A DNA stretch of 64,000 nt from Burkholderiales bacterium (GTDB taxonomy: Bacteria; Pseudomonadota; Gammaproteobacteria; Burkholderiales; Usitatibacteraceae): NCBI GenBank assembly GCA_043773745.1, contig JAYVEV010000132.1, positions 1,073 through 65,072 on the forward strand. The letters are read 5' to 3'. The notes below the pieces were generated by a model. That model ran no database searches and was not told where the DNA came from. It worked only from the letters and a program-made list of their open reading frames with translations. The translations under genes and the position numbers were made by a program. How positions within the stretch are numbered: position 1 is the first letter of the stretch; the number at the start of each line of letters is the position of its first letter. Below, one piece after another: positions 40,205 through 55,272 of this stretch.

Positions 40205-40652
40205 CGTCGCGCATCGCGTGGTCGCTGCTTGTGCTGTTGGCATGGCGTTCAAATTTTTGAATGGCACGCCGATCCTGCTTGGTAGGCCGACCTTTGAATA
40301 ACGGTGGCGGCATATTGCGCTGCTCGTGCAGAATCTGTTCGCGCGCAGCGATGCTTTCCACGGTCTCTTCGTAGAAACCGCGCGCCACCACCGCCGATGC
40401 GCGTTTTTCGATAATACTTTTTACGACCAAATGAAATACATAGGGCGGTTTGCGTAATAGCAGCACATCACTGACTTTAATGGTTTTGGCAGGCTTGGCA
40501 CGTTCATTGTTGACATCGACATGACCCGCATTAATGGCGTCGATGGCGATTTGGCGGGTCTTGAAAAACCGTGCCGCCCAAAGCCATTTATCGAGCCGCA
40601 CTTGCGGCGCGGCGAGCTCAGTCGCCGCCTTGCTTTCAGCGCGACTTGGCAT
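40197..40652 (-). CDS. hslR: Hsp15-like ribosome-associated heat-shock protein (S4 RNA-binding domain)
   Basis: It contains VRLDKWLWAARFFKTRQIAIDAINAGHVDVNNERAKPAKTIKVSD, the Hsp15 S4 motif. Confidence 0.85.
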   Translation of the reverse strand: MPSRAESKAATELAAPQVRLDKWLWAARFFKTRQIAIDAINAGHVDVNNERAKPAKTIKVSDVLLLRKPPYVFHLVVKSIIEKRASAVVARGFYEETVESIAAREQILHEQRNMPPPLFKGRPTKQDRRAIQKFERHANSTSSDHAMRDDE

Positions 40653-41247
40653 TTGCCTTCGCGCTCACTCTTGCGCTTAATTTCACGCTGGCGATATTCA
40701 TCGGCAGCCCGGTGCCGGTGTCATATTCGGCGCCGCACAGCACGCCCATCCTGGCAATTTCTTCGGCTGCTTTGCGGCCCTTGTGCTGTTCATAAACCGC
40801 AAACATCGCACCCAATGCAAAATCGCGGCCCGAGCCAATCGCCCAGAAGCGATCAAACTCAAACACCTCACGCATCGAATACACTCCAAAAATACCGCTG
40901 GAGTTGACGATCAGCGCGGTTAATTGTGATGACTCGTAAGCATCATCGTCTTCTTCCTTAGTGTTCAGGAATGCCTCATCTTTGAGCAGCGGATGAATTT
41001 TGCGAAAGCTTTCGTAAATTTCCTCGCGGCCATAAAACTTGAATTCGGGATGCCGCTTCAACAGACTTTCCAGCACCAGCTGGTGCGCGGCGGAACCGGC
41101 AATACCAAAATAAGTATCGCCATGCTTGAGTAATTTTTCCGGTGCAGCATCGTGCACGCTGCCCAAACGGGTTGAGCCAAATGTGGTGAGCGTGTCACCC
41201 GCGATCGTGACCATCCCATCTTTTTTAACCACCACGATTGTTGTCAT
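40636..41247 (-). CDS. HslV-related Ntn-hydrolase, probable betaproteobacterial proteasome homolog (BPH)
   Basis: The N-terminus MTTIVVVKKDGMVTIAGDT parallels HslV TTIV.V...G.V.IAGDGQ, with the Thr nucleophile right after Met. The product is 203 aa. No hslU or other AAA+ gene is adjacent. It overlaps hslR by 17 nt. Confidence 0.65.
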   Translation of the reverse strand: MTTIVVVKKDGMVTIAGDTLTTFGSTRLGSVHDAAPEKLLKHGDTYFGIAGSAAHQLVLESLLKRHPEFKFYGREEIYESFRKIHPLLKDEAFLNTKEEDDDAYESSQLTALIVNSSGIFGVYSMREVFEFDRFWAIGSGRDFALGAMFAVYEQHKGRKAAEEIARMGVLCGAEYDTGTGLPMNIASVKLSARVSAKANAKSR

Positions 41248-42035: not shown

Positions 42036-45000
42036 TCAACAGCTAGTCAGAAAGAAGCGCGCAGCAGCCGGCGAGAAGTACCGGCATCCCTTGCCTGATA
42101 GCAGTACCTTGTCCGGACTTGACGGTGCATTGCTGTTAATAACCAGTTTCCCCGCTATCGTCCCCAGACTAATGGGACTGAACGTGATGCTGATCGTGCA
42201 GAAAGCATTGGGTGCCAGCACTGTCCCGCAGGTATTGGTCTGGGAATAACTACTGTCGGTTGTTATGCTGGCGAGATTGAGCGGCAGATTGCCTACGTTG
42301 GTCAGCGTGACGCGCTGAGCCGGTGCCAGGCTGCCGTAAATGACATTGCCAAAGCCCAGGGTGGTGGCACTCAGCTTCGCGATCGGCGACGGGATGGGCA
42401 TGGCCATACCGGTCACCGTGATCGCGTTGACTATGGCCGCATTGCTGGCATTGCTCGGGATGCTGACCACGGCCGTTTTGGTGGCCGGGTTGAGGCTTGT
42501 CGCAAGCTGGGGCGTAAAGCTGATATTGAAACTGCAGCTGGCATTGGCCGCCAATGTTGCCGCGCAGGTTCCGGATAATGCAAAGTCATTGGCGAGCGTA
42601 TTCGCTCCCGGTTGTACGATGATGGCATCCAAGTTCAGCGGCGCGTTGCCAGTGTTGGAAATCGTAATAACCTGCGGTGCGCTGACCGTACCGATCACTT
42701 GTTCGGTGAAACTCAAATTGCCACTCAACTTGATAATCGGCGCCGGTGCGGGCGTGCCATTGGCAGTGATGGCGACGGTCAACGGGTTCGGCGTGCTGGG
42801 CGCAGTGACATTATGGGTGATCGTGATACTGCCATTGACCGCACCCGTCACAGCAGGCGCAAACAGCACGCTGATGTGGCACTGTGCCAATGGTGCCAAT
42901 GTGGTGCCGCAGTTGGGCACGGTAATAGCCGGTATCGTGGTTGTTGGCGCACTGGCCCTGACCAGACCCGCGCCATTGATCACCACGCCGGACAATAATA
43001 AATTGGCGCTTCCGCCATTGGTGACAATGACGCTCTGAATGGCCGAGACTGAACCAACCGATTGATCGCCAAACGCAAGCACAGCCGGGCTGACTGCAAT
43101 ATTGGGGGCCGGGACAACCACACCACTACCAGACACAGACACCGCTACGGATGACGGTGGTGCATTGCTGCTGATTAACAGAAATGTGTTTGAGGAGCCC
43201 GTGCCAAGTGGGTTGAAGGTGACACTAATATTGCAGGTCGCGCCGACTGCCAAAGTCGCTGGGCTAAGCGGGCAGTTGGAACTAAACGCAAAGTCACCTT
43301 GTGATGAAATGTTGTTAATAGCCAGCGGCAACTGCCCGCTGGAGGTAATGGTGATATTTTGCGCGGCGCTGGATACACCAACATTCACCGCACCAAAACT
43401 CAAACCGCCCGTTGAAACGGTGATGCCTGGTGCCAGTGCTGGCGCGACGATTAGCGCGACGCTGGAGGTATTGGTATTGTTACCACCGGCACTCAGATTG
43501 CTAGGCACAACATTGATAGTGTAGCTGCCCGCGCTTGCAGCCCGTACTGCAAACGTAATGGTGCAACTACCCATCGCCGAAATACTGCCCATACCAAAGG
43601 TGATGCCGGTACCGCCAGTTACGATACTGGGAAAAGTGCCGCAGTTGTTGGACGGCGCAGGCGTAGCCTGTACCAGAAGTCCCGCGGGCATGGTCACTGA
43701 GCCACTGCTAATGAGTTGGGGGGAAGGCGCCGGCGTACTGAGAGTCAGTGTAACCTGCGCATTGATACCGGCGAGTACGCTGGCCGGCGATACGGCGACT
43801 GTCATGGTTGGATTGAGATTGATGCCCGTGCCACTGAGCGCAATGATATGGGGGCTGCTGACCGTATTATCCGTGATGGTCAACGTGCCCGTGGCAGCAC
43901 CCGCAACGGTCGGGGTAAAAGTCACGTTGATTGTGCAGGTATTGGCGGGAGGGCTTGCCGGGGGTACCGCCAATAATGACGTACTGCAGGATGTCGTTGT
44001 CGTGAACGGACCGGTCAAGGTAAATGCACCGCCAAAGATAAGGTCAGCCGTACCGGTATTGGTTAAGGTCAGTGCTTGCGGGGCACTGCTGGTGCCGACT
44101 CCCTGCCCGCTGAAGGTAAGTATGCCGGCGCTGGCGCTGAACAGCGGAGCGGCCAACGGCGTAATAACAACGGTATAGGTCGCTGACGCATTCGGCAGCG
44201 TCCCGTTGGCGGCCTGTACGGTGAAGCTATAGCTGCCCGCCAAGGTTGGTGTGCCGGACAAAACACCCGTTGTCGTATTCAGGCTCAATCCCGTTGGCAT
44301 GGTGCCTGTCGCAATGCTCCAGGTGATGGTAGGACTGCCGGCAGCGGTAAAGCTAAAGCTGTAGCCTTTGCCGATTGATCCACCGGGCGGCGTAGCGCTG
44401 GTAATGGCGGGCGAAGTAGCAAGACCCGGTGCGGCAATCAAACTGTTGAGCGAGAGCGCTTCAGCGCCGGATAATGCACGGCCATAAATCAGCAGATTAT
44501 TGGCCAGGCCGTTAAACGCTCCGCCGTTAGCGTAATTAAAGAATGAAAACACGCGATCGGACGGATTGGCGCTGGAATAGAACGCATCAAAATTGAATCC
44601 GCTTGGTAGCGAAATGGGCGTCTTCAACACACCATCAATATACAAATTGATTGTTAACTTGGAGACATCAACCACCACAATCGCCCGATGCCATGTATTC
44701 AACGTCATCGGTGCCCCGAGCGTGAATGAGCTCACACCATTATTCAACGTGATGCGCGGCTCGTACAGCGGGGTTACACCCAGTTCCATCGCGCGATAGC
44801 TTGTGCCGAAGCTGAGTATCGTGCCGTTAGTGGGCAGCGTGCTTAGATTAAAATCCACCATGAATGAAAATTGGCGATAGTTAACTCCTTCGCGCAAACC
44901 GGAGGAGTTGCTACCACTGTACACACCATTCATCGACAAACTATTGCTGGCGAATGTGGCGCTAGGGTTCAACGAAAATGAAGCGCCCCCCATCAAGTCG

Positions 45001-47450
45001 CTTGCCGCAACGGTAAACGGAAAATAAGCGAGGAGTCCGTTTTGCGACACTGCAGCGGGCAATACAAATGCAGGTGTTGCAGGCATCACGCTATTGGACA
45101 CCACTGAAGATGTGCTGTTGCCGACACCGTTATTCGCCACCACCGTAAAGGTATAGGCAGTACCGTTAGTCAGCCCGGTAACAATATGCGAAGTAATGGC
45201 GCTGCCTGCATTACTGTCATAACCGCCAGCCGGTGACGACACCACGGTGTACCCCGTATTGCTAAACCCAGTGTTGGTAGATGGCGAAAAAGACACCATC
45301 GCATAACCGTTTGCCGCATTTGCATTGGGTGCGCCCGGTGCAGAAGGTACGTTACCGGCAACCCCGGTTCCACTCAGGGTAATGACGCTCGTACTAGGGG
45401 TGGCATTAGATATCATAGTAAGCGTCGCGCTCGTCAGCCCCAGCACGGTCGGCTTGAATATCAGTTGAAGTGTGCAGGACGAGCCGGGGGAAAGAGTTTG
45501 CATGCCGGTGAGTGGAGCGCCATTAACATCAGCGCCAATGAAGCACCAGTTATAGGGAATCGGGCGAGTATCGTCGAAATAGGAATCGCGGAATAGCGCA
45601 GCATTCGAATGGGCCAGGCTGAATGTGAGATTTGCAGTTCCACTATTTTGAATGGTCACGGCTTGTACCGCGCTGGATCCACCGACCGCAGTGCTCGGGA
45701 AAGTTGTTGCGCCCGAAACTGTCACCGCAGGACCGGCTGCTGGCGCGCTAGCCGCTCCGTTCAGCGCAAAGACGTAAGAAACAGCCGGCTTCACGGTCTC
45801 GGGCAAAACTGGCGGCGATGCAGACGAAATCGGTCCCAATGTGAGTGTTGCCGTTTCAGTAACAGTGGGACTGGGTTGGTTATAAGTCACCACCACTTGG
45901 CAACTCGCACCTGCGGCCACTGACCCACACGTGCTGGAGGTCACGGTGAACGCTGCCGAATTGCTGGTTGGCAGTGGCACCATCACCGCCACGCTGTCGG
46001 CATTCGTAAATGTAAATGTTTGCGATTGAGTCCCGCCAGCCGCAATGGAAAAGTTCGAATATGTCGATGTGTAGATCAACGGCGTTACGGCCTGCACGGA
46101 AATTTCCGACGTTCCGCCAATCGACCCGACAGGCGTCGATGCGGTCATCGACGGGTGATAGGTCGGGGGCCCGCTGGTGATCATTTGAATGGCGGTATAC
46201 CCGACTCCGTCAGTGATCTTTTTGCCGGTCAACACATATTTCACGCCGATACCCAGGTTTGATGTGTCAATGTTGTTGGTGTTGTCGAACAGGTCGATGT
46301 CGTATGTTGTGCTCGCTGCGGAGCTAAGCGTGGCATCGACAGTCGTGGCGACGCTGGCGCCGCTCCATGCGTAATTCACCGCAGTAATGATCGGATAATT
46401 CTGTGCAAATGCGGGCGAACCCGGTTGCCCGCCATTGGCGTGATAGCAACCCGGACTGTTGAGAAGGGCGTTACTGTCTCGGACGTCGCCCGCCAATATA
46501 TCCCCCAGCGCAATTCCCGGATAGGCGCCGTTCGGAATACCGATATTGTTGGCGCGTATCGAGATGCCCTGCGGAGCGCATTCACTCGCGTAGACGCGGA
46601 TACCACCCTGCAAGTTGGCGTTGATGGTGTTGTCGTGGATATCGGCCGGCCCTCTCAACATGCCAATGCCGGCACCCAGATTACCTGCGATGAGATTGTT
46701 GGCGATGACCGTGTTTGGAACATAGATCTCAATGGCGTTGTTGCCGCCATTGGGCGACCCAATGGCGCCGGATGGCGAGACACCGATGTAGTTATTTACA
46801 ATCCGCGTTCCGGTCGCGCCGGAGACGAAGGGGAGAAGAATACCCACTGAATTAGAAGAAATCGTATTGCGTTCGGCCGCTAGCAAACCGCCGATGTTCG
46901 CCATGGACCCGCCGGTCATTTTCACGCCAAAACCATTGCTAGAGATTGAATTGCCGGTGATAGTAGCGCCGTTGCCGCCCGCAATTAGGACGCCGGGATT
47001 TCCCGCGAAGTTGTTGATAGCTAAGCCGCGTACCGCAATGTTATTTGCGTTAATCTCGAGACCCGGTCCCGCCATCCCCAATGATGCACCGTTTAACGTG
47101 ATGAGTATGTTGGCATTGTTACCCGTTAACTGCTTATTAGCAGTTGCAAGGGGTTGTGAATAGCCGTCGAGGGTGGTGTCGTTACAAGAGAGGGTCGGCA
47201 ATGGCGAATTGAGCGAAATGACGACCGGCCCTGGTACCGGAATATTGAAATTGATCGTTGCCGTGGATCCGCATAATCCACCCGCGTTGGCGTCAGTAAT
47301 GGCCTGTCGCAGTGAGCCGGGCCCGGAGTCGTTGATATTTGTAACAGTGGCCACAATCGACTGCGCGTATGCGCCGCCGACCATACCAAGCAACAGCGAC
47401 GATGCCAGCGTTGCAAGGAAGCATTTAATGATCATGAGCTGTTTTAACAT
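42036..47450 (-). CDS. Giant secreted multi-domain protein: CSLREA-like motif + right-handed beta-helix, Cys-pair Ig-like (choice-of-anchor-D/ASH-like) repeats, FN3, LamG, Ig-like
   Basis: It has a signal peptide (MLKQLMIIKCFLATLASSLLLGMVGGAYA|Q). Start candidates are 47450, 47462 or GTG at 47513. GSLRQAITDAN is followed by about 300 aa of beta-helix-like repeats (NN.I.GN..G...). An FN3-like segment spans nt 45081-45350, a LamG-like segment nt 44436-45041, and a He_PIG/cadherin-like Ig segment nt 44160-44417. At least 8 repeats of ~100 aa each carry two Cys, with the motif C-x-[ILVF]-x-[IV]-x-[FY]-x-P. Confidence 0.8.
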   Translation of the reverse strand: MLKQLMIIKCFLATLASSLLLGMVGGAYAQSIVATVTNINDSGPGSLRQAITDANAGGLCGSTATINFNIPVPGPVVISLNSPLPTLSCNDTTLDGYSQPLATANKQLTGNNANILITLNGASLGMAGPGLEINANNIAVRGLAINNFAGNPGVLIAGGNGATITGNSISSNGFGVKMTGGSMANIGGLLAAERNTISSNSVGILLPFVSGATGTRIVNNYIGVSPSGAIGSPNGGNNAIEIYVPNTVIANNLIAGNLGAGIGMLRGPADIHDNTINANLQGGIRVYASECAPQGISIRANNIGIPNGAYPGIALGDILAGDVRDSNALLNSPGCYHANGGQPGSPAFAQNYPIITAVNYAWSGASVATTVDATLSSAASTTYDIDLFDNTNNIDTSNLGIGVKYVLTGKKITDGVGYTAIQMITSGPPTYHPSMTASTPVGSIGGTSEISVQAVTPLIYTSTYSNFSIAAGGTQSQTFTFTNADSVAVMVPLPTSNSAAFTVTSSTCGSVAAGASCQVVVTYNQPSPTVTETATLTLGPISSASPPVLPETVKPAVSYVFALNGAASAPAAGPAVTVSGATTFPSTAVGGSSAVQAVTIQNSGTANLTFSLAHSNAALFRDSYFDDTRPIPYNWCFIGADVNGAPLTGMQTLSPGSSCTLQLIFKPTVLGLTSATLTMISNATPSTSVITLSGTGVAGNVPSAPGAPNANAANGYAMVSFSPSTNTGFSNTGYTVVSSPAGGYDSNAGSAITSHIVTGLTNGTAYTFTVVANNGVGNSTSSVVSNSVMPATPAFVLPAAVSQNGLLAYFPFTVAASDLMGGASFSLNPSATFASNSLSMNGVYSGSNSSGLREGVNYRQFSFMVDFNLSTLPTNGTILSFGTSYRAMELGVTPLYEPRITLNNGVSSFTLGAPMTLNTWHRAIVVVDVSKLTINLYIDGVLKTPISLPSGFNFDAFYSSANPSDRVFSFFNYANGGAFNGLANNLLIYGRALSGAEALSLNSLIAAPGLATSPAITSATPPGGSIGKGYSFSFTAAGSPTITWSIATGTMPTGLSLNTTTGVLSGTPTLAGSYSFTVQAANGTLPNASATYTVVITPLAAPLFSASAGILTFSGQGVGTSSAPQALTLTNTGTADLIFGGAFTLTGPFTTTTSCSTSLLAVPPASPPANTCTINVTFTPTVAGAATGTLTITDNTVSSPHIIALSGTGINLNPTMTVAVSPASVLAGINAQVTLTLSTPAPSPQLISSGSVTMPAGLLVQATPAPSNNCGTFPSIVTGGTGITFGMGSISAMGSCTITFAVRAASAGSYTINVVPSNLSAGGNNTNTSSVALIVAPALAPGITVSTGGLSFGAVNVGVSSAAQNITITSSGQLPLAINNISSQGDFAFSSNCPLSPATLAVGATCNISVTFNPLGTGSSNTFLLISSNAPPSSVAVSVSGSGVVVPAPNIAVSPAVLAFGDQSVGSVSAIQSVIVTNGGSANLLLSGVVINGAGLVRASAPTTTIPAITVPNCGTTLAPLAQCHISVLFAPAVTGAVNGSITITHNVTAPSTPNPLTVAITANGTPAPAPIIKLSGNLSFTEQVIGTVSAPQVITISNTGNAPLNLDAIIVQPGANTLANDFALSGTCAATLAANASCSFNISFTPQLATSLNPATKTAVVSIPSNASNAAIVNAITVTGMAMPIPSPIAKLSATTLGFGNVIYGSLAPAQRVTLTNVGNLPLNLASITTDSSYSQTNTCGTVLAPNAFCTISITFSPISLGTIAGKLVINSNAPSSPDKVLLSGKGCRYFSPAAARFFLTSC

Positions 47451-47600
47451 TTTCGCCACCATTCGCAATTTATGACTCGCTATTGAATTTCCCACTATCT
47501 GGCACCCAATCACCCCCCTTCAGACGAGGCTCCCCAAGCATTTATGCCTGCGAACCCTCGTCAAATGGCGAGTTTGCCCTTTTTATGCCGGGGCTCGCGC

Positions 47601-49955
47601 CTATCCGCCTCGCCGACGCAGCGCCACTGCGCCTGAAATACTGCTATTCAGGTTGTACATGAGGCCGGCACCACGTCCGGTCGCGCCCGTAAAGAAACCA
47701 TCGATGCTGCCGGTGAAACGTGTTTGCGTGCAACTCGGGGCGCAGGTGATATTGAGCGCCACGGGGGTTGGCAGGCCGGGCACGATGGCACCACCGGTGT
47801 TGACCGCGAAGGTCATATCACGGTAGATCGGCACACCGTTGGCCGAGGCATTCCAGGTTTGCCCGGCGATGGTGAAATTGACGCTGGTATCAACCGTGCG
47901 CGTGCTGAAATTGGCATTCAGCGTGGCGCTGTTCAGATTACCGACATTGCCTTGAAAATCGGTGGGATGGGTCGAGCCGACTACGTCATACGACGCACTA
48001 CCAGTTAGCGGCAGTGTCGTGGGCACCGATTGAGCGGCACTGAAGATGTAATGCTGGCTGCGTCCTGCTAGCCCAGTCTCTACACCGCCAATCGTTGCGC
48101 TGGCACCGGACCAGCGACCCCACGAAAGCCCGGTCGTGGCATCCACACCGGTATCAAATGCTTGGGATGTACCTATCGCATAATTGGTGCGGCCATTGAT
48201 GGTTCCATCGCCGCGCGCATACGGCGCAACGAACGAGATGGCGCGACCATTAGCATCGATATTTACTTCCTCGGCTCGATTAATGGTGGCATAGGTTTGC
48301 GAATAGCTCGACTGGGAAAGTGAGCTGGTCGAGTCGGAAATCAAACCATAGCGAAATGGAGCAGCCGTATTTTGTGCGGGGCCGCGAAACGCCAGCACAC
48401 CGCTGACCGATTGCACATTGGTTGCGGCACTACTGTCGACAAAGCCATAACCCAGAATCACGCCATTCAGCCTGCTGCCGACAAAGCTGCCCTCAATTTG
48501 TCCGAAAATATTGAAATTATTGTTGGAGTTTTGATTGGTCGTATTGTTGGTAACGGTAAGGCCAAATCCGGTGAACGTAAAAAAGCTGTTGAGTGAAAAC
48601 GGCACGTTCGTCGCCTGCAGCGTGTAATTGTTGGCGCCCGCCGAGGTGGGCATTGACAATGCAATAGTGGCGTTGAGCAAGCGCTGCGTGAAATTCACAC
48701 TAAGCAATGTTGAGGTGATGGCACCAGCAGCGCCAGACTGGTTAGTCGGGGCGGTGCCGCCCACTTGGGTGTAGATCACCGTGCCGGTGAGGACATCTGA
48801 CAAATAGGGCGGATAGCCGGAACTGCCATAAATGAAATGGGTGCTGCCGCCAGCGAGCGAGCCGAAACCCAGAGCCTCGCTGCTGGACGGCGCATTCCAA
48901 CGGCCGAGCGTAATCGAAGAATTGTCACCCAGGTCGATGGTGCTGGCATTGGCAATCATACCGCCAACAATAACGGCGGACGTGTTTGCACCGCCCGGCG
49001 CAGCGGTAAAGCTACGTAAATTGCCATTTTCCAATGTGATGCCGCTTGGCAACGCCTGACCGCTATAGGTATTGCCAGCGCCTGCCAATACGATATCGCG
49101 CAAACCGGAAGGATCCGGCGCCGCCAGAGTCTGTGTATTGATGATGTTAGTACCTGCGGTGGTGCCACCGCTCGTGCTGCCGGTGCCGGTAGTCGGTGTA
49201 TTTGTATTGGTCGGCACAATTGACGGCGGCGGTGTGGTGGTGCCGGTAGATTGAACTGCAACCTGCGCCGGCGTTTCCTTGCCCACCATCGTATTGGAAG
49301 CGGACAAAATTTGTGGTGGCGTGGGGATTTTTTCGGGAGGCCGTCCCAGCTCAATTTTGACCGTGTCATTCGGGAAGCTGATGAACGGCGCAAAGTTACT
49401 CCCGAGGCTGGTAATAATATGACTGCCCTCAATGGTGTGATTGATGGTCACCACCTTGCCGTCTTCTTCCTCGTGCGAAAGAATGTTGCCGGAGCCGCGA
49501 ATACCGACGGTGGCAACTCGGGTTTTCATCAGGTACTTGTCGCGATTGGCGCCACTCAAAAGTCCGGTGAAGGTGCGCATGGTGCCACGCAATAATGACA
49601 GGATGGCACCGTCCTGATCGCTCGCTGTTTTTTGATAGCGTTCAATCTTAAGCTGCGAATTTGAGCGCAATGATAATTTGGCCAGATCGATCATTGATAG
49701 CTGTGCCATACCGTCCGCACCCGCGATAATGACATCGCCCGGGTTCACTTCCATGCCACGGATGGCGGGTTTACGGCTTTCGCCACTTTGAATTTGCACA
49801 TTGCCCGCCACGTAGGTGAACTGACCGCTCGCCGCAATCGCCTGAATGGACAGCGAGCTGACAAGCGCCCCGAGGGCAGCGACAAGATAATGACGGAACG
49901 AAGTGTCCGCCGTCGTTTGCAGAATTGCGGTTGTTGTGGACAAGTTCTTGATCAT
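47601..49955 (-). CDS. Secreted FecR-domain protein with two tandem TbpB-like (handle/8-strand barrel-like) C-terminal modules
   Basis: It has a signal peptide without a lipobox. The FecR pattern spans nt ~49356-49823 (GNVQIQSG...PGDVIIAGADGMAQLSMIDLAKLSLRSNSQLKI...ATVGIRGSG). A Pro/Thr linker follows, then two mutually alignable modules at nt ~48381-48938 and ~47616-48143. Confidence 0.65.
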   Translation of the reverse strand: MIKNLSTTTAILQTTADTSFRHYLVAALGALVSSLSIQAIAASGQFTYVAGNVQIQSGESRKPAIRGMEVNPGDVIIAGADGMAQLSMIDLAKLSLRSNSQLKIERYQKTASDQDGAILSLLRGTMRTFTGLLSGANRDKYLMKTRVATVGIRGSGNILSHEEEDGKVVTINHTIEGSHIITSLGSNFAPFISFPNDTVKIELGRPPEKIPTPPQILSASNTMVGKETPAQVAVQSTGTTTPPPSIVPTNTNTPTTGTGSTSGGTTAGTNIINTQTLAAPDPSGLRDIVLAGAGNTYSGQALPSGITLENGNLRSFTAAPGGANTSAVIVGGMIANASTIDLGDNSSITLGRWNAPSSSEALGFGSLAGGSTHFIYGSSGYPPYLSDVLTGTVIYTQVGGTAPTNQSGAAGAITSTLLSVNFTQRLLNATIALSMPTSAGANNYTLQATNVPFSLNSFFTFTGFGLTVTNNTTNQNSNNNFNIFGQIEGSFVGSRLNGVILGYGFVDSSAATNVQSVSGVLAFRGPAQNTAAPFRYGLISDSTSSLSQSSYSQTYATINRAEEVNIDANGRAISFVAPYARGDGTINGRTNYAIGTSQAFDTGVDATTGLSWGRWSGASATIGGVETGLAGRSQHYIFSAAQSVPTTLPLTGSASYDVVGSTHPTDFQGNVGNLNSATLNANFSTRTVDTSVNFTIAGQTWNASANGVPIYRDMTFAVNTGGAIVPGLPTPVALNITCAPSCTQTRFTGSIDGFFTGATGRGAGLMYNLNSSISGAVALRRRGG

Positions 49956-49972: not shown

Positions 49973-51367
49973 TTACATAAAGTCGCAGCGGATGGTCGAC
50001 GACACTTCGTGACGCGTATAATCATAAATAGCAATATTGGAATCGTTGCGCGAAGCAGCCCACTGGCCACGCATGCTGCAGCGATCCTGGAAGCGCCAAT
50101 TAACGCCCAGAGTCAAATCAGTCAGGCGGTCGCGGCCCAGCGCAACCGTGGTCGAGCGCGCAAAGGCGCTATCATCCCGGCGTTGGGCATGACCCAGCGT
50201 GCTAAACAGCGACAAGCGATCAGAGAGATTGTATTGTCCATAGACGCGAACACCCGCGGTTTTCTTGGATTTATCGGTGAGTCCGTCGGCTAGCTTGTGC
50301 TTGGCGGTATCCCGGCTGTAAAAGCCGGAAAGTTGCAGTAGCGGGGTGCCCGTTCCGGCAAACGTGGTCAACCAGCCCGCAGATGCCATGACGGAATCAA
50401 AATCCTCGGTCGGGTTTTTTAGGAACTTGGTTTGCCCGGCGTTCAGGCCCATGCTGAGTTGGTTGGCCGCATTCATGTTAATCCGCCATTCAGCGCCGCC
50501 GTTAGCGTTGCTACGGTCATTGGTCGGTTTAGGGGCGCCGGGGGCGTCGCCCTCTTGGGCATATCGGTTGAAAGCGGCATGCAAACGCAGTTGTTGGCTG
50601 CCACTATCCCAAATCGCGCCGGCCCGCGCATCACCGGAATAGGAATTGAATTCCGCCTGCTTACGATACCCGCGGGCACGCAGCTCGCCACCAGCATAGC
50701 CGCTCCATTTTTCGGAAATGGGCGTAATAAAATCGGCGCCGACTGCCGCACCCAGATAGGGCGCTTTGCGTTTGATTGAATTGCCAGTAGGGTTAACGCC
50801 GACTAAATTGAATGACTGCTGTACCGCCGCGCTGAAATCGGTCGGCACCCCGGTGAGATTGCTATCGTAGCCAAGCGCCATCTCGCCCCATGCATTGAAA
50901 ATACGTCGGGAGGCTTTGCGTCGCTCGGCAATAACATTTAGATATTTATCAATCGCGCCAAGGGCGGCAGCAGGCGGGTTTGATGCTTTCAGCTTGCGAA
51001 ATGTACCTTCGGCCAGATCAAGTGAACCGGCGTTGAAATAGGCGCGAGCCAAATCCAGCTGTGCACCGGCATTGCGCGGCTCGACAGCCAATACGCGCTC
51101 AAAGGCAATAATGGCGTCATCGATTTTGCCGCTATCAAGCGCCGCCACGCCCAGCAGATAGTCATATTCGGGATTGCCCGCGAGTTTGTCCTGCTCGGCG
51201 ACCAGCAACATATAGGCCTGCTTGGCATTCTGTGCCGTAATCAAGCGGCGCGCTTCGTCATACAAAGCAGGATTAGCAGCGGCATTTAAATGCGTCAGCA
51301 ATGAGACTAACGCAACGGCAATGATGGTTGCAGCGCTGGATTGGAACGATATTTTTGTTGGTCTCAT
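49973..51367 (-). CDS. TPR + outer-membrane beta-barrel protein, Slam/DUF560-like (type 11 secretion system translocon candidate)
   Basis: It has a signal peptide and about 3 TPRs (YDYLLGVAALDSGKIDDAIIAFERVLAVEPRNAGAQLDLARAYFNAGSLDLAEGTFRKL). A barrel-like region of ~300 aa starts at ..LGYDSNLT and ends SNIAIYDYTRHEVSSTIRCDFM. At 464 aa it matches Slam proteins in size. The candidate cargo gene lies 17 nt downstream. Confidence 0.6.
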   Translation of the reverse strand: MRPTKISFQSSAATIIAVALVSLLTHLNAAANPALYDEARRLITAQNAKQAYMLLVAEQDKLAGNPEYDYLLGVAALDSGKIDDAIIAFERVLAVEPRNAGAQLDLARAYFNAGSLDLAEGTFRKLKASNPPAAALGAIDKYLNVIAERRKASRRIFNAWGEMALGYDSNLTGVPTDFSAAVQQSFNLVGVNPTGNSIKRKAPYLGAAVGADFITPISEKWSGYAGGELRARGYRKQAEFNSYSGDARAGAIWDSGSQQLRLHAAFNRYAQEGDAPGAPKPTNDRSNANGGAEWRINMNAANQLSMGLNAGQTKFLKNPTEDFDSVMASAGWLTTFAGTGTPLLQLSGFYSRDTAKHKLADGLTDKSKKTAGVRVYGQYNLSDRLSLFSTLGHAQRRDDSAFARSTTVALGRDRLTDLTLGVNWRFQDRCSMRGQWAASRNDSNIAIYDYTRHEVSSTIRCDFM

Positions 51368-51833: not shown

Positions 51834-53444
51834 ATGAAATTCGTTTCATCTATTAAATGCGATGCCTTGATATGGCGTATCGGTGGCCTCACTTGTGCCT
51901 TCGCATTTTCAATTTGGATATCACCATCGACTGCCGATGCCAAAACGCTGCGCTGGGCCAGTAGGGGCGATGTATTCACGATGGACCCGCACTCGCAAAA
52001 CAATGGTCTCACCAACGATATGTCTGACCATATTTATGAGCCGTTAGTCACCCGTGGCAAAACCATGGCGGTGGAACCCGCGCTGGCCGTCTCATGGTCA
52101 CAAATCAATCCCAACACCATGCGCTTCAAGCTGCGCGATAAAGTCGTGTTTCATGATGGCGCCGCGTTCACGGCGGACGATGTGGTGTTCTCGATCAGCC
52201 GCGCGCTTGAGAAAACCTCGGATTTTTCGGCCTATATGCAGGGCATCAAGGAAGCTCGAAAAATAGACGCCCTGACGGTTGATATCATCACTGACGGACC
52301 AACACCAACACTGCTTGACCAATTGACCGAAGTCCGACTCATGAATAAAGCCTGGGCGTTCAAATTCAAAGCGCAGCGCCCGCAAGACTACAAAAACAAG
52401 GAAGAAACCTATACGGCGCGTCACGCCAATGGTACCGGACCGTTCGCCCTGAAAAGCCGGGAGCCCGATGTAAAAACTGTCCTAGTTGCCAACCCGAAAT
52501 GGTGGGGGAAGATTGATCCGTCTGTCACGGAAGTGGTGTACACCCCAATCAAATCGGATGCCACCCGTATCTCCGCCCTGATTTCGGGCGAGCTTGACTT
52601 CGTCTTAGACCCGCCGGTGCAAGACCTCGCGAAGCTAAAAGAAAACAAAGCCATCAAAATTTTAGAAGGCAACGAAAACCGTACCCTTTTCCTCAACATG
52701 GACCAAGGCCGCGATGAATTGCTGTACGGATCAAAAGGCAAAAATCCATTCAAAGATGTGCGCGTTCGCCAGGCAATGCTACTGGCAATAGACATTAACG
52801 CCATCCATAAAACTGTGATGCGGGGACTGTCGCTACCCACCATGTCGATGATTGCACCGCAGGTACGTGGCTACACCAAGGAGATTGAAAACCGGCCGGC
52901 AGTCGATATTGCAAAAGCAAAGAAACTAATGGCCAGTGCGGGTTTTGCCAATGGTTTTGATGTCACCTTTGATTGCCCCAACGATCGCTACATAAATGAT
53001 ATTCAGATTTGCACGGCCATCACCGGCATGCTCGCCAAAATTGATATCCGCGCAAAATTAAACGCCATGCCGGTCACGCTGTATTTGCCCAAATTGCAAA
53101 AAGGCGACACCAGCATGTATTTATTGGGTTGGGGAGTGCCTACCTTTGACGCACTGTATACCCTGCAATCCATTTTACGCACCCATACTGCCGGTAGCGA
53201 CGGCAACTGGAATTTTTCGGGCTACTCCAACCCCAGGGTGGATGCCATTATCGAAAAACTCAAAACTGAAATTGATTTCAAGAAGCGGGCAGAATTGACC
53301 AAAGAAGCACTATTACTAGACCAAGCTGATGTCGGCCACATACCGCTGCATCATCAGGTGATTCCGTGGGCGATGCGCAGCAATATCACCGTGATTCACC
53401 GCGCCGACAACCGTATGCATGCCAAATGGGCGATTATTAAATGA
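51834..53444 (+). CDS. ABC transporter substrate-binding protein, family 5 (paralog 1 of tandem pair)
   Basis: It has a signal peptide and the blocks KTLRWASRGDVFTMDPH and FHDGAAFTADDVVFSISRA. The size is 536 aa. Confidence 0.88.
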   Translation: MKFVSSIKCDALIWRIGGLTCAFAFSIWISPSTADAKTLRWASRGDVFTMDPHSQNNGLTNDMSDHIYEPLVTRGKTMAVEPALAVSWSQINPNTMRFKLRDKVVFHDGAAFTADDVVFSISRALEKTSDFSAYMQGIKEARKIDALTVDIITDGPTPTLLDQLTEVRLMNKAWAFKFKAQRPQDYKNKEETYTARHANGTGPFALKSREPDVKTVLVANPKWWGKIDPSVTEVVYTPIKSDATRISALISGELDFVLDPPVQDLAKLKENKAIKILEGNENRTLFLNMDQGRDELLYGSKGKNPFKDVRVRQAMLLAIDINAIHKTVMRGLSLPTMSMIAPQVRGYTKEIENRPAVDIAKAKKLMASAGFANGFDVTFDCPNDRYINDIQICTAITGMLAKIDIRAKLNAMPVTLYLPKLQKGDTSMYLLGWGVPTFDALYTLQSILRTHTAGSDGNWNFSGYSNPRVDAIIEKLKTEIDFKKRAELTKEALLLDQADVGHIPLHHQVIPWAMRSNITVIHRADNRMHAKWAIIK

Positions 53445-53546
53445 TGAAATCTTTAGGTGATGCCATGGGATGGGCCGAATGGACTGCACGGTCGGCAAGG
53501 AATAATCAAGCGCTGCTGAATTAAGACATTTCCATTACAATGCGCT

Positions 53547-53583
53547 GCCCGTCGGCTTGTTACCGGCGGGCTGTTTATTTGTG
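53547..53583 (+). terminator. Intrinsic terminator/attenuator between the two tandem binding-protein genes
   Basis: A 9-bp stem GCCCGTCGG/CCGGCGGGC (one G-U pair) closes a 7-nt loop and is followed by TGTTTATTTGTG. Confidence 0.6.
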
Positions 53584-53661
53584 ACATTTGTAACGGACGC
53601 CCCGCAGCAAGGGACTACTTTGTTGCTGCAATCAAGTTGAAATTTTTTGAATGGTGAAGTG

Positions 53662-55272
53662 ATGATGAATTTCAAAACAATGTTTTCCACCACCGTGCTG
53701 TTAATGGCGCTCACTATTTCCGCTGCCACCAATGCCGCTACCGCCGCGCCCCAAGCAAAAATATTGCGCTATGCAAGCCAGGACGATCCGCAAACGCTGG
53801 ATCCACATTCAGCCAACCTGACACCAACCAATCGTGTGATTTCGCAAATTTATGAGTCGCTCGTGGCGCGTGACAAAGACTTCAAAATTGTCCCCGGGTT
53901 GGCGCTTTGGTGGAGCGCCCCCGATAACAAAACCTGGCGTTTCAAGCTGCGCCCCAATGTGAAATTTCATGACGGCTCGCCATTCACCGCCGATGATGTG
54001 GTGTTCTCTGTCGAGCGTACTTTGCACCCACTGTCCCAACTAAAATCATCATTACAGGGCGTGGCCAGCGCCAAAAAAATTGACACTTTTACAGTAGATT
54101 TTGTGATGAAAGAGCCCAATCCGGTGCTGTTGAATCATCTGTATCAATTTCGCGTGATGTCCAAAAGCTGGGCCACCAAGAACAACGCGGTAGCACCTCA
54201 AAATTACAAATCTAACGAGGATACATTTTCCTCGCGAAACGCCAATGGCACCGGCCCATTCATATTGAAGCTTCGCCAGCCAGATGTGAAAACCGTGCTT
54301 ATCGCCAATCCCAACTGGTGGAACAACGCCAGCAAAGAAAAAGGCAATGTCACGCAGGTTGAAATGCTGCCGATCAAATCTAACGCGACGCGCGTGGCCG
54401 CGCTGCTGTCGGGCGAAATCGATTTCGTGCTTGATCCGCCCCAGCAGGACGTGGCTCGATTGAAGGCCGATCCCAATATCAGAATTGCGGAAGGAAACGA
54501 GGCGCGCATTCAGTATTTTGCGTTTGATCAATTCCGTGATGAGTTGCTGTACAGCAACGTAAAAGGTAAAAATCCGCTTAAAGATTTGCGCGTTCGCCAA
54601 GCGATTGGGTACGCCATTGATGTTAATGCCATCCGTCAAGTTGTGATGCGCGGCTTGTCGACCCCCACCGGCAGCATTGTGCCGCCTGGTACCCAAGGCT
54701 ATTCTAAAGAGGCCGATAAGCGCTTACTGTTTGACCGCGAAAAGGCCAAGACGCTACTGGCTGAAGCAGGTTATCCCATGGGCTTTTCAATCACGCTTGA
54801 TTGTGGTGCCAACCAGCCACCGGCCGATATTTGCCAAGCTGTTGCCGCCATGTTGACCCAGATTGGGATTCGCACCACACCGAATATCGTGCCGCTCGCC
54901 AATTATTTTTCGAAACTGCAGAAATTCGACACCAGTTTTTATCTATTGAGCTGGGGTGCAACCACTTTCGATTCGTTCTATACGCTGCAAGCACTTCTGA
55001 ACACCAATGCGGGCGAGCTATCAGCCAGCGGTGATTCGAATTATGGCCGCTATTCCAATCCCAAAATGGATGAATTGATCGGCAAAATTAAGTCCGAGTT
55101 TGATATGAAAAAGCGCGACGCCTGGATTCGCGAAGCGCTGCTTCTGAACCAAAATGATATCGCCACCCTGCCGCTGCATCAACCCGTGATACCGTGGGCC
55201 ATGCGCAAAAATATTGAGGCTTCCTTTGCGCCCAATAACATCGCGTATTTTTTCCGCTTCAAAATCAATTAA
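53662..55272 (+). CDS. ABC transporter substrate-binding protein, family 5 (paralog 2)
   Basis: I chose the ATG at 53662. It has a signal peptide (..ALTISAATNAATA) and the blocks KILRYASQDDPQTLDPH and FHDGSPFTADDVVFSVERT. Confidence 0.88.
   Translation: MMNFKTMFSTTVLLMALTISAATNAATAAPQAKILRYASQDDPQTLDPHSANLTPTNRVISQIYESLVARDKDFKIVPGLALWWSAPDNKTWRFKLRPNVKFHDGSPFTADDVVFSVERTLHPLSQLKSSLQGVASAKKIDTFTVDFVMKEPNPVLLNHLYQFRVMSKSWATKNNAVAPQNYKSNEDTFSSRNANGTGPFILKLRQPDVKTVLIANPNWWNNASKEKGNVTQVEMLPIKSNATRVAALLSGEIDFVLDPPQQDVARLKADPNIRIAEGNEARIQYFAFDQFRDELLYSNVKGKNPLKDLRVRQAIGYAIDVNAIRQVVMRGLSTPTGSIVPPGTQGYSKEADKRLLFDREKAKTLLAEAGYPMGFSITLDCGANQPPADICQAVAAMLTQIGIRTTPNIVPLANYFSKLQKFDTSFYLLSWGATTFDSFYTLQALLNTNAGELSASGDSNYGRYSNPKMDELIGKIKSEFDMKKRDAWIREALLLNQNDIATLPLHQPVIPWAMRKNIEASFAPNNIAYFFRFKIN

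Follow-up and report, generated by a model that had tools for sequence, protein, structure and literature searches.

What brings a FecR-like domain and two lobes resembling those of the transferrin-binding protein TbpB together in one secreted protein, and how would such a protein be delivered to the cell surface? The question is raised by an open reading frame (ORF) at positions 47601-49955 (minus strand, 784 amino acids [aa]) of a 64,000-nucleotide (nt) stretch of DNA, here called the window, from a Burkholderiales bacterium of the Usitatibacteraceae (assembly GCA_043773745.1, contig JAYVEV010000132.1, positions 1,073 to 65,072 of the forward strand). From the domain anatomy, fold matches, gene pairing and one-to-one pairing within the genome, all computed here, we propose with good confidence that this ORF encodes the dedicated cargo of a Slam-like, type 11 secretion outer-membrane protein (OMP) whose gene lies directly upstream; it is the anatomy of the domains together with the invariant 1:1 pairing that favors this interpretation. 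The two genes are separated by 17 nt, together occupy 3.8 kb, and are composed as follows:

49973..51367, minus strand: Slam-like OMP, 464 aa, with a signal peptide, tetratricopeptide repeat (TPR) helices at residues ~33-154, and a 14-stranded barrel at residues 156-463.

49833..49955, minus strand: putative signal peptide of the cargo, residues 1-41, free of Cys, with a cleavage site read by eye between ...SIQAIA and ASGQF.

49326..49832, minus strand: FecR-like or retention-module-like all-beta head, residues 42-210, beginning at the mature N-terminus.

49107..49325, minus strand: disordered linker rich in Pro, Thr, Ser and Gly, residues 211-283.

48375..49106, minus strand: N-lobe, a handle (residues 284-365) and a TbpB-like barrel (366-527), delimited from DSSP strands, Foldseek and the lobe-lobe alignment.

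47604..48368, minus strand: C-lobe, a handle (residues 530-630) and a TbpB-like barrel (631-784) with the end ...SGAVALRR, the presumed targeting domain for the type 11 secretion system (T11SS).

An earlier note, made from the sequence without stating the strand, had described this ORF as a FecR domain fused to a duplicated, TbpB-like region, and all of the peptides that it quoted are found in the translation of 47601-49955. The two modules that it aligned to each other are significantly similar: cargo residues ~346-528 and ~610-781 match by BLASTP at E=9e-11 (27% identity over 184 columns), from which we conclude that the internal duplication is real, and hidden Markov models (HMMs) built from the barrel of either lobe match the other at 1e-12 to 1e-14. 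We identified >423 homologs of the cargo at E<=1e-3, and 42 of these were aligned as input for AlphaFold2. The resulting model has a mean predicted local distance difference test (pLDDT) score of 79.5, with disorder (pLDDT <50) confined to residues 1-39 and 223-280, and is laid out as an all-beta head (residues 45-205), a disordered linker, and two units at residues 284-527 and 530-784. Within each unit, short strands (the handle) are followed by longer, barrel-like strands according to DSSP, with the final strand reaching residue 781 of 784. The count of eight strands per barrel, one or two of them broken, is taken from the DSSP string in combination with the fold matches. In a Foldseek search of the PDB, 18 TbpB chains rank first (E 1.8e-8 to 1.9e-6, prob 1.00), with alignments of 527-617 columns that run through both lobes. 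These are followed by the C-terminal cell-surface signalling domain of PupR (8e-5), hemophilin of A. baumannii (7re4, E=1e-4), BDI_1681, MpIBP, and NHBA, the C-terminal barrel of which has a TM-score of 0.65. The prediction of TbpB-like beta-barrel lobes is thus borne out by the modeled structure, in the form of two handle-plus-barrel units.

The N-terminus of the cargo consists of a hydrophobic stretch and, by eye, an AIA/AS cleavage site, and the N-termini of the orthologs are alike. The only cysteines in the whole protein are C738 and C742, an invariant pair within the barrel of the C-lobe. There is thus no lipobox, since no Cys precedes residue 738, and the protein could belong at most to the non-lipidated subclass of T11SS cargo, in agreement with the earlier description of a signal peptide without a Cys lipobox.

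The OMP has significant Pfam TPR matches, and its AlphaFold2 model (pLDDT 80.6) contains exactly 14 strands after the TPR helices. A 14-stranded barrel is part of the DUF560 topology (PMC8406197), and the order of TPR followed by 14 strands in the modeled OMP is that of Slam/DUF560 proteins. Among 38 orthologs, 25 match SlipAM and 20 match TPR_Slam at E<0.01, and two paralogs encoded in the same genome pass the SlipAM cut-off (24.5 and 23.0 bits). Relative to the Slam OMPs, the window OMP belongs to a divergent branch that lies at the limit of what the SlipAM model covers.

The pairing of the two genes was followed through 80 loci from GTDB species genomes, comprising metagenome-assembled genomes (MAGs) of Usitatibacteraceae, Burkholderiales, Rhodocyclaceae and Nitrosomonadaceae together with the complete genome CP019169. 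Wherever the available DNA extends far enough upstream, the cargo gene is immediately preceded by a Slam-like gene. A strict script recovers this in 54 of 59; the remaining five also have a Slam-like ORF ending beside the cargo match, and were missed because stop-to-stop ORFs ran into that match. The genome of the window, a 3.08-Mb MAG that is 90% complete, encodes exactly three such OMPs and three FecR-lobe cargos, each pair adjacent. Its two paralogous pairs, on contigs C139 (L014: 861-4728) and C84 (L015: 3919-7580), have cargos of 788 and 732 aa, lack the giant gene described below, and are followed by genes for FMN reductase, ferritin and PutA (C139) or MlaA (C84). More distantly, the barrel profile matched seven of 401 sampled genomes of the phylum; the lobe gene lies directly downstream of a TPR-barrel gene in six of six distant genomes, and four of the five OMPs scanned from these pass the SlipAM cut-off, with 25.8-31.3 bits. 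A SlipAM gene also precedes each of two multi-lobed relatives on long contigs. The relation to Slam cargo that the earlier note had suspected from the lobes is therefore supported by the adjoining TPR and 14-strand protein as well, with a pairing that is invariant across the loci.

Variations on this arrangement were also seen. One locus (L126, 1-12870) has two SlipAM and FecR-protein pairs in tandem, with cargos of 501 aa and 2289 aa, and at another (L115, 8913-14705), two FecR-lobe genes come after a single Slam-like gene. A metagenome cluster representative of 1239 aa (P0266) is apparently a Slam-like TPR and SlipAM barrel fused to three handle-barrel lobes; its OMP part ends ...YIRRSF and there is no FecR head, so that it would be a covalent fusion of OMP and cargo if real. 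It may instead be an artefact of assembly or gene calling, and the argument here makes no use of it.

We next consider the head and the linker. A Pfam scan of the cargo returns a single match, to FecR (PF04773) on residues 75-167 (E=4.7e-5), which passes marginally with 24.2 bits against a gathering cut-off of 24, and the same family is matched by 21 of 38 distant relatives at E<0.001, lending support to the FecR segment proposed earlier. Neither a cytoplasmic anti-sigma domain, nor a membrane helix, nor a C-terminal FecR_C/STN-like domain was found in the cargo, which contains PF04773 alone. The LapA retention module (NF033682, retention_LapA) matches residues 48-114 (E=5.8e-4, 20.1 bits, with a cut-off of 50 bits), and is weakly matched by 38 of 42 orthologs at E<0.01, the best of them at E=3.8e-6. 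Judged by sequence, what the head shares with the LapA retention module is a common motif and fold, and not family membership. Foldseek matches of the head include PupR (6ovk, 8e-5), the anti-sigma factor BDI_1681 (4m0n), and the cell-surface anchoring domain of MpIBP (5ix9), the last with a target TM-score of 0.70 and a root mean square deviation of 1.7 over 61 columns. Across the 42 orthologs, the majority frequency is highest in the C-terminal barrel domain (0.77) and second highest in the head (0.73), and is 0.46 in the linker, whose sequence is variable and whose length is held at 57-80 aa. The Pro/Thr linker of the earlier description is therefore present, disordered in the model, and constrained in length.

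The same layout is common well beyond these orthologs. Searched with phmmer, the C-lobe matched at least 571 clusters (at 50% identity) at E<=1e-3 among 1.84 billion cluster representatives; by tblastn, it matched none of 72,556 plasmids. Among the 151 best relatives, 97 have a signal peptide immediately followed by a FecR-like head and then by one to eight barrel modules, and 89 of these 97 end in a barrel no more than 40 residues from the C-terminus; the other 54 are for the most part apparent fragments. The fusion had been called unusual, which is true of the literature but not of nature, where a family of at least 571 clusters has it as its standard layout. We note that the genome of the window also encodes shorter FecR-like proteins without lobes, on contigs C116 (87107-88261), C33 (143854-144852) and C9 (44060-44803), and that a CHASE2 protein is encoded ~19 kb from the copy on C116.

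Downstream of the cargo gene in the window is a third gene:

42036..47513, minus strand: giant secreted protein, 1825 aa, with seven choice-of-anchor D stretches, fn3 and He_PIG.

A relative of this gene is present in 42 of the 51 loci with enough downstream DNA, namely in all seven of the loci closely orthologous to the window copy and in 35 of the other 44; the loci that lack it include close orthologs of the C139 paralog. In the window genome, the giant protein is the sole one of its kind. It ends in a Cys-bracketed segment, GKGC-x14-C (~42039-42095, minus strand), and a tail of the form G-x-G-C-x(12-16)-C ends all 36 of the complete giant relatives listed (543 to 2558 aa; L016-L090), often with R.FS....R in its interior and with zero to three residues after the last Cys. 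From its sequence, this tail has the look of a tag for sorting or recognition, of a kind not yet described.

These observations are accommodated by a mechanism in which the cargo would cross the inner membrane by Sec and remain unlipidated, and the OMP would recognize the C-terminal TbpB-like barrel as a targeting domain and move both handle-plus-barrel lobes to the cell surface. The cargo of known T11SS pores consists of Sec-exported lipoproteins or soluble proteins with a small C-terminal barrel (10.1101/2024.09.26.615229). The head would fold in the periplasm, be unable to pass the pore, and act as a stopper, with the 57-80 aa linker spanning the outer membrane and the bilobed module tethered without a lipid anchor. 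The displayed lobes might then bind a protein ligand, for which the best, more speculative, candidate is the giant protein, through its Cys-bracketed tail; the product of the giant gene had also been named as a possible ligand in the earlier note. What we infer in this scheme is that the OMP translocates the cargo, that the head is retained in the periplasm, and which ligand the lobes bind. Taken as a whole, with the pair, the stopper head and the proposed ligand, we regard it as the likely explanation of the locus, and its parts differ in strength. A role of the head as a periplasmic stopper or tether, which is drawn by analogy, is possible if not quite probable, and that the giant protein is the ligand of the lobes is a doubtful, tentative suggestion.

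The stopper role is favored by the position of the head at the mature N-terminus, its conservation, the length-constrained linker, the matches to the LapA model and MpIBP, and the periplasmic location of those FecR-type domains whose location is known. In vitro, Slam1 translocated only urea-unfolded TbpB (PMC9090332), and a head that folds quickly should for this reason stall. In LapA, an N-terminal head, repeats and a C-terminal targeting domain are laid out in the same order in a protein that is anchored in its pore (10.1101/198937). A still more specific version, in which a head plug and a linker through the Slam barrel form a lipid-free tether convergent with LapA, and the lobes are the receptor or sorting partner for tagged giant proteins, we think rather unlikely.

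Several observations weigh against parts of this scheme. For the lobes, whole-chain TM-scores against TbpB are low (0.16-0.26), which we attribute to an orientation of the lobes different from that in TbpB. PF01298 (TbpB_B_D) has no match in the cargo at E<=0.1 and none genome-wide at E<=10, and searches of PDB chains with the cargo sequence or the 42-sequence profile gave nothing usable, so that the resemblance to TbpB is one of fold only. For the OMP, the window copy scores 19.6 bits against SlipAM, below the cut-off of 22, and its best fold matches by TM-score are the 14-stranded OmpG and CymA, with FadL and the TPR-barrel protein BcsC also matched; the fold search found no Slam structure in the PDB, and the match of the barrel is therefore generic. 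For the head, every retention-module score is far below the NF033682 cut-off of 50 bits, so that the stopper role is an analogy, and we know of no T11SS in which a polypeptide has been shown to be stably threaded through the 14-stranded barrel. Finally, because the two paralogous pairs lack the giant gene, the giant protein is not the ligand of all family members.

Some further evidence touches on the relation of the lobes to PF01298. In a FecR-headed relative of 2808 aa, a PF01298 barrel (E=4.9e-12) sits in a gap of the barrel array. The barrel HMM of the subfamily matches this segment weakly (i-E 0.0015) in the same register, and hhalign of a 24-sequence barrel profile also matches it weakly (prob 17%, 50 columns), with a register that agrees with that of the HMM. 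As sequence comparisons, the agreement of the two falls short of proof. One further relative is annotated as transferrin-binding protein-like.

Because the cargo is non-lipidated, soluble T11SS cargo is established (10.1101/2024.09.26.615229), and a hemophilin is among the fold matches, one alternative is that the same type 11 pair releases the entire protein as a soluble, hemophilin-like binder, with the head outside the cell. However, this leaves unexplained why a FecR- or retention-like head should be present at the mature N-terminus in 97 of the 151 relatives, and why it should be conserved equally to the targeting barrel; moreover, FecR-type domains of known location are periplasmic (PMC5498481; as in the PupR match), and no uptake receptor is linked. 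Soluble release survives best among the alternatives, and we consider it unlikely.

A second alternative is trans-envelope signalling, in which the lobes would sense conditions outside and the periplasmic head would relay this to a sensor in the inner membrane, for example a CHASE2 protein. There is a precedent in Sinorhizobium, where periplasmic FecR-domain proteins are encoded beside CHASE2 cyclases (PMC5498481), and the window genome encodes four CHASE2 proteins. We sought a link in cis at the three cassettes and found none, as none of the four CHASE2 genes is on the contig stretches that carry them. Nor is there a cyclase or kinase in the conserved neighborhood of the subfamily, in which the conserved third gene encodes a giant surface-type protein, and signalling is thus improbable.

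Third, the linkage of the three genes in 42/51 loci, and the presence on the giants, which have no recognized secretion signal, of a conserved, sorting-tag-like C-terminal tail, could be taken to mean that the TPR-barrel protein serves to export or anchor the giant protein, with the FecR-lobe protein acting not as cargo but as a periplasmic adaptor or tail chaperone. This is very unlikely, given that the OMP and FecR-lobe pair occurs without the giant gene at the two paralogous loci and in most of the wider family, and that the lobes adopt the fold seen in established T11SS cargo, surface-bound or secreted, with a targeting-type barrel at the end.

Last, a classical FecR anti-sigma factor, or an iron-responsive cell-surface signalling partner of a TonB-dependent transducer, would account for the PF04773 match and the fold resemblance to the periplasmic domains of PupR and BDI_1681, but has next to no chance of being correct, since it is contradicted by the lack of the cytoplasmic anti-sigma domain, transmembrane helix and C-terminal FecR_C/STN-like domain, and of an extracytoplasmic function (ECF) sigma factor or TonB-dependent receptor nearby, the neighboring genes being unrelated and the TonB-receptor matches of the genome being on other contigs.

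The earlier suggestion of haem or iron as the ligand likewise finds no support. The conserved neighborhood has no TonB-dependent receptor, ECF sigma factor or haem gene, and no TonB-dependent receptor was found within ~10 kb of the cassette in the window or in loci L001-L003; the 18 TonB-receptor matches of the genome all fall outside this contig, and neither of its two STN-domain matches shares a contig with a TonB-dependent receptor match. We reject an iron or haem reading on these grounds.

Returning to the interpretation as a type 11 OMP and its cargo, we compared the pair with characterized systems. As with Slam1 and TbpB of Neisseria, an OMP with a periplasmic TPR region and a 14-stranded barrel is encoded adjacent to its cargo, and as in TbpB, the cargo is bilobed, each lobe has a handle and a small barrel, and a barrel is at the very C-terminus. 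Unlike in TbpB, there is no lipobox, and a FecR-like domain and Pro/Thr linker replace the lipid anchor and anchor peptide; the Pfam TbpB_B_D model misses the barrels; there is no linked TonB-dependent receptor equivalent to TbpA; and, unlike the Neisseria system, the host is an uncultured environmental betaproteobacterium. The hemophilin family (Hpl, HphA and HrpC, with HrpB/HsmA-type OMPs) is similar in being non-lipidated and, as presumed for the cargo here, Sec-dependent, with a handle and an eight-stranded barrel, but hemophilins are single-lobed haem binders with linked TonB-dependent receptors, and at their loci FecR occurs solely as a separate neighboring regulator gene and is never fused. 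With LapA and MpIBP, the cargo has in common a small all-beta domain at the mature N-terminus of a long surface protein with a C-terminal secretion signal, although those proteins use the TolC-like pore of a type 1 secretion system without a Sec step, and here the pore would be a 14-stranded barrel. With FecR and PupR anti-sigma factors, it shares the periplasmic beta domain (PF04773; 6ovk, E=8e-5), whereas their anti-sigma domain, membrane helix, C-terminal subdomain, sigma factor and transducer partner are missing.

Among the remaining features of the window, the 87-nt spacer between the cargo and giant genes (47514-47600) contains a 7-bp inverted repeat, GACGAGG ... CCTCGTC, that is not followed by a T-run; across the cassette, promoter- and terminator-like sites are no commoner than in shuffled sequence. 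Genes for family-5 solute-binding proteins are located beside the cassette both in the window (a tandem pair at 51834-55272, followed by Opp/Dpp-type permease and ATPase genes) and at a distant ortholog locus (L001, 5803-7383), a co-location that may be conserved synteny or coincidence. At window positions 40636-41247 (minus strand), an ORF for a 203-aa proteasome-family (HslV-like) protein overlaps S4-domain (Hsp15-like) and YceI-like genes; HslU was not seen among the ORFs scanned.

Studies of type 11 secretion have dealt almost exclusively with animal-associated bacteria. Pairs of this type are themselves known, and Sphingomonas and Psychrobacter have predicted T11SS cargo with two to three lobes (10.1101/2024.09.26.615229). 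The ten published cargo architectures, which derive from DUF560 cluster 1, include none with a FecR head (10.1101/2024.09.26.615229). Throughout the type 11 secretion literature that we searched, FecR appears only as a neighboring regulator gene, and the 2025 cargo survey is silent on it; the nine DUF560 clusters from water and soil are stated to contain no characterized protein (PMC8406197). The cargo architecture described here is therefore widespread, environmental, and undescribed in that literature. This gene and its relatives, in at least 571 clusters and with one to eight lobes, constitute a candidate cargo class for environmental Slam-like pores, and if the proposed role of the head is correct, a folded periplasmic domain could, by analogy with LapA, take the place of the lipid anchor and keep a secreted protein in its pore.

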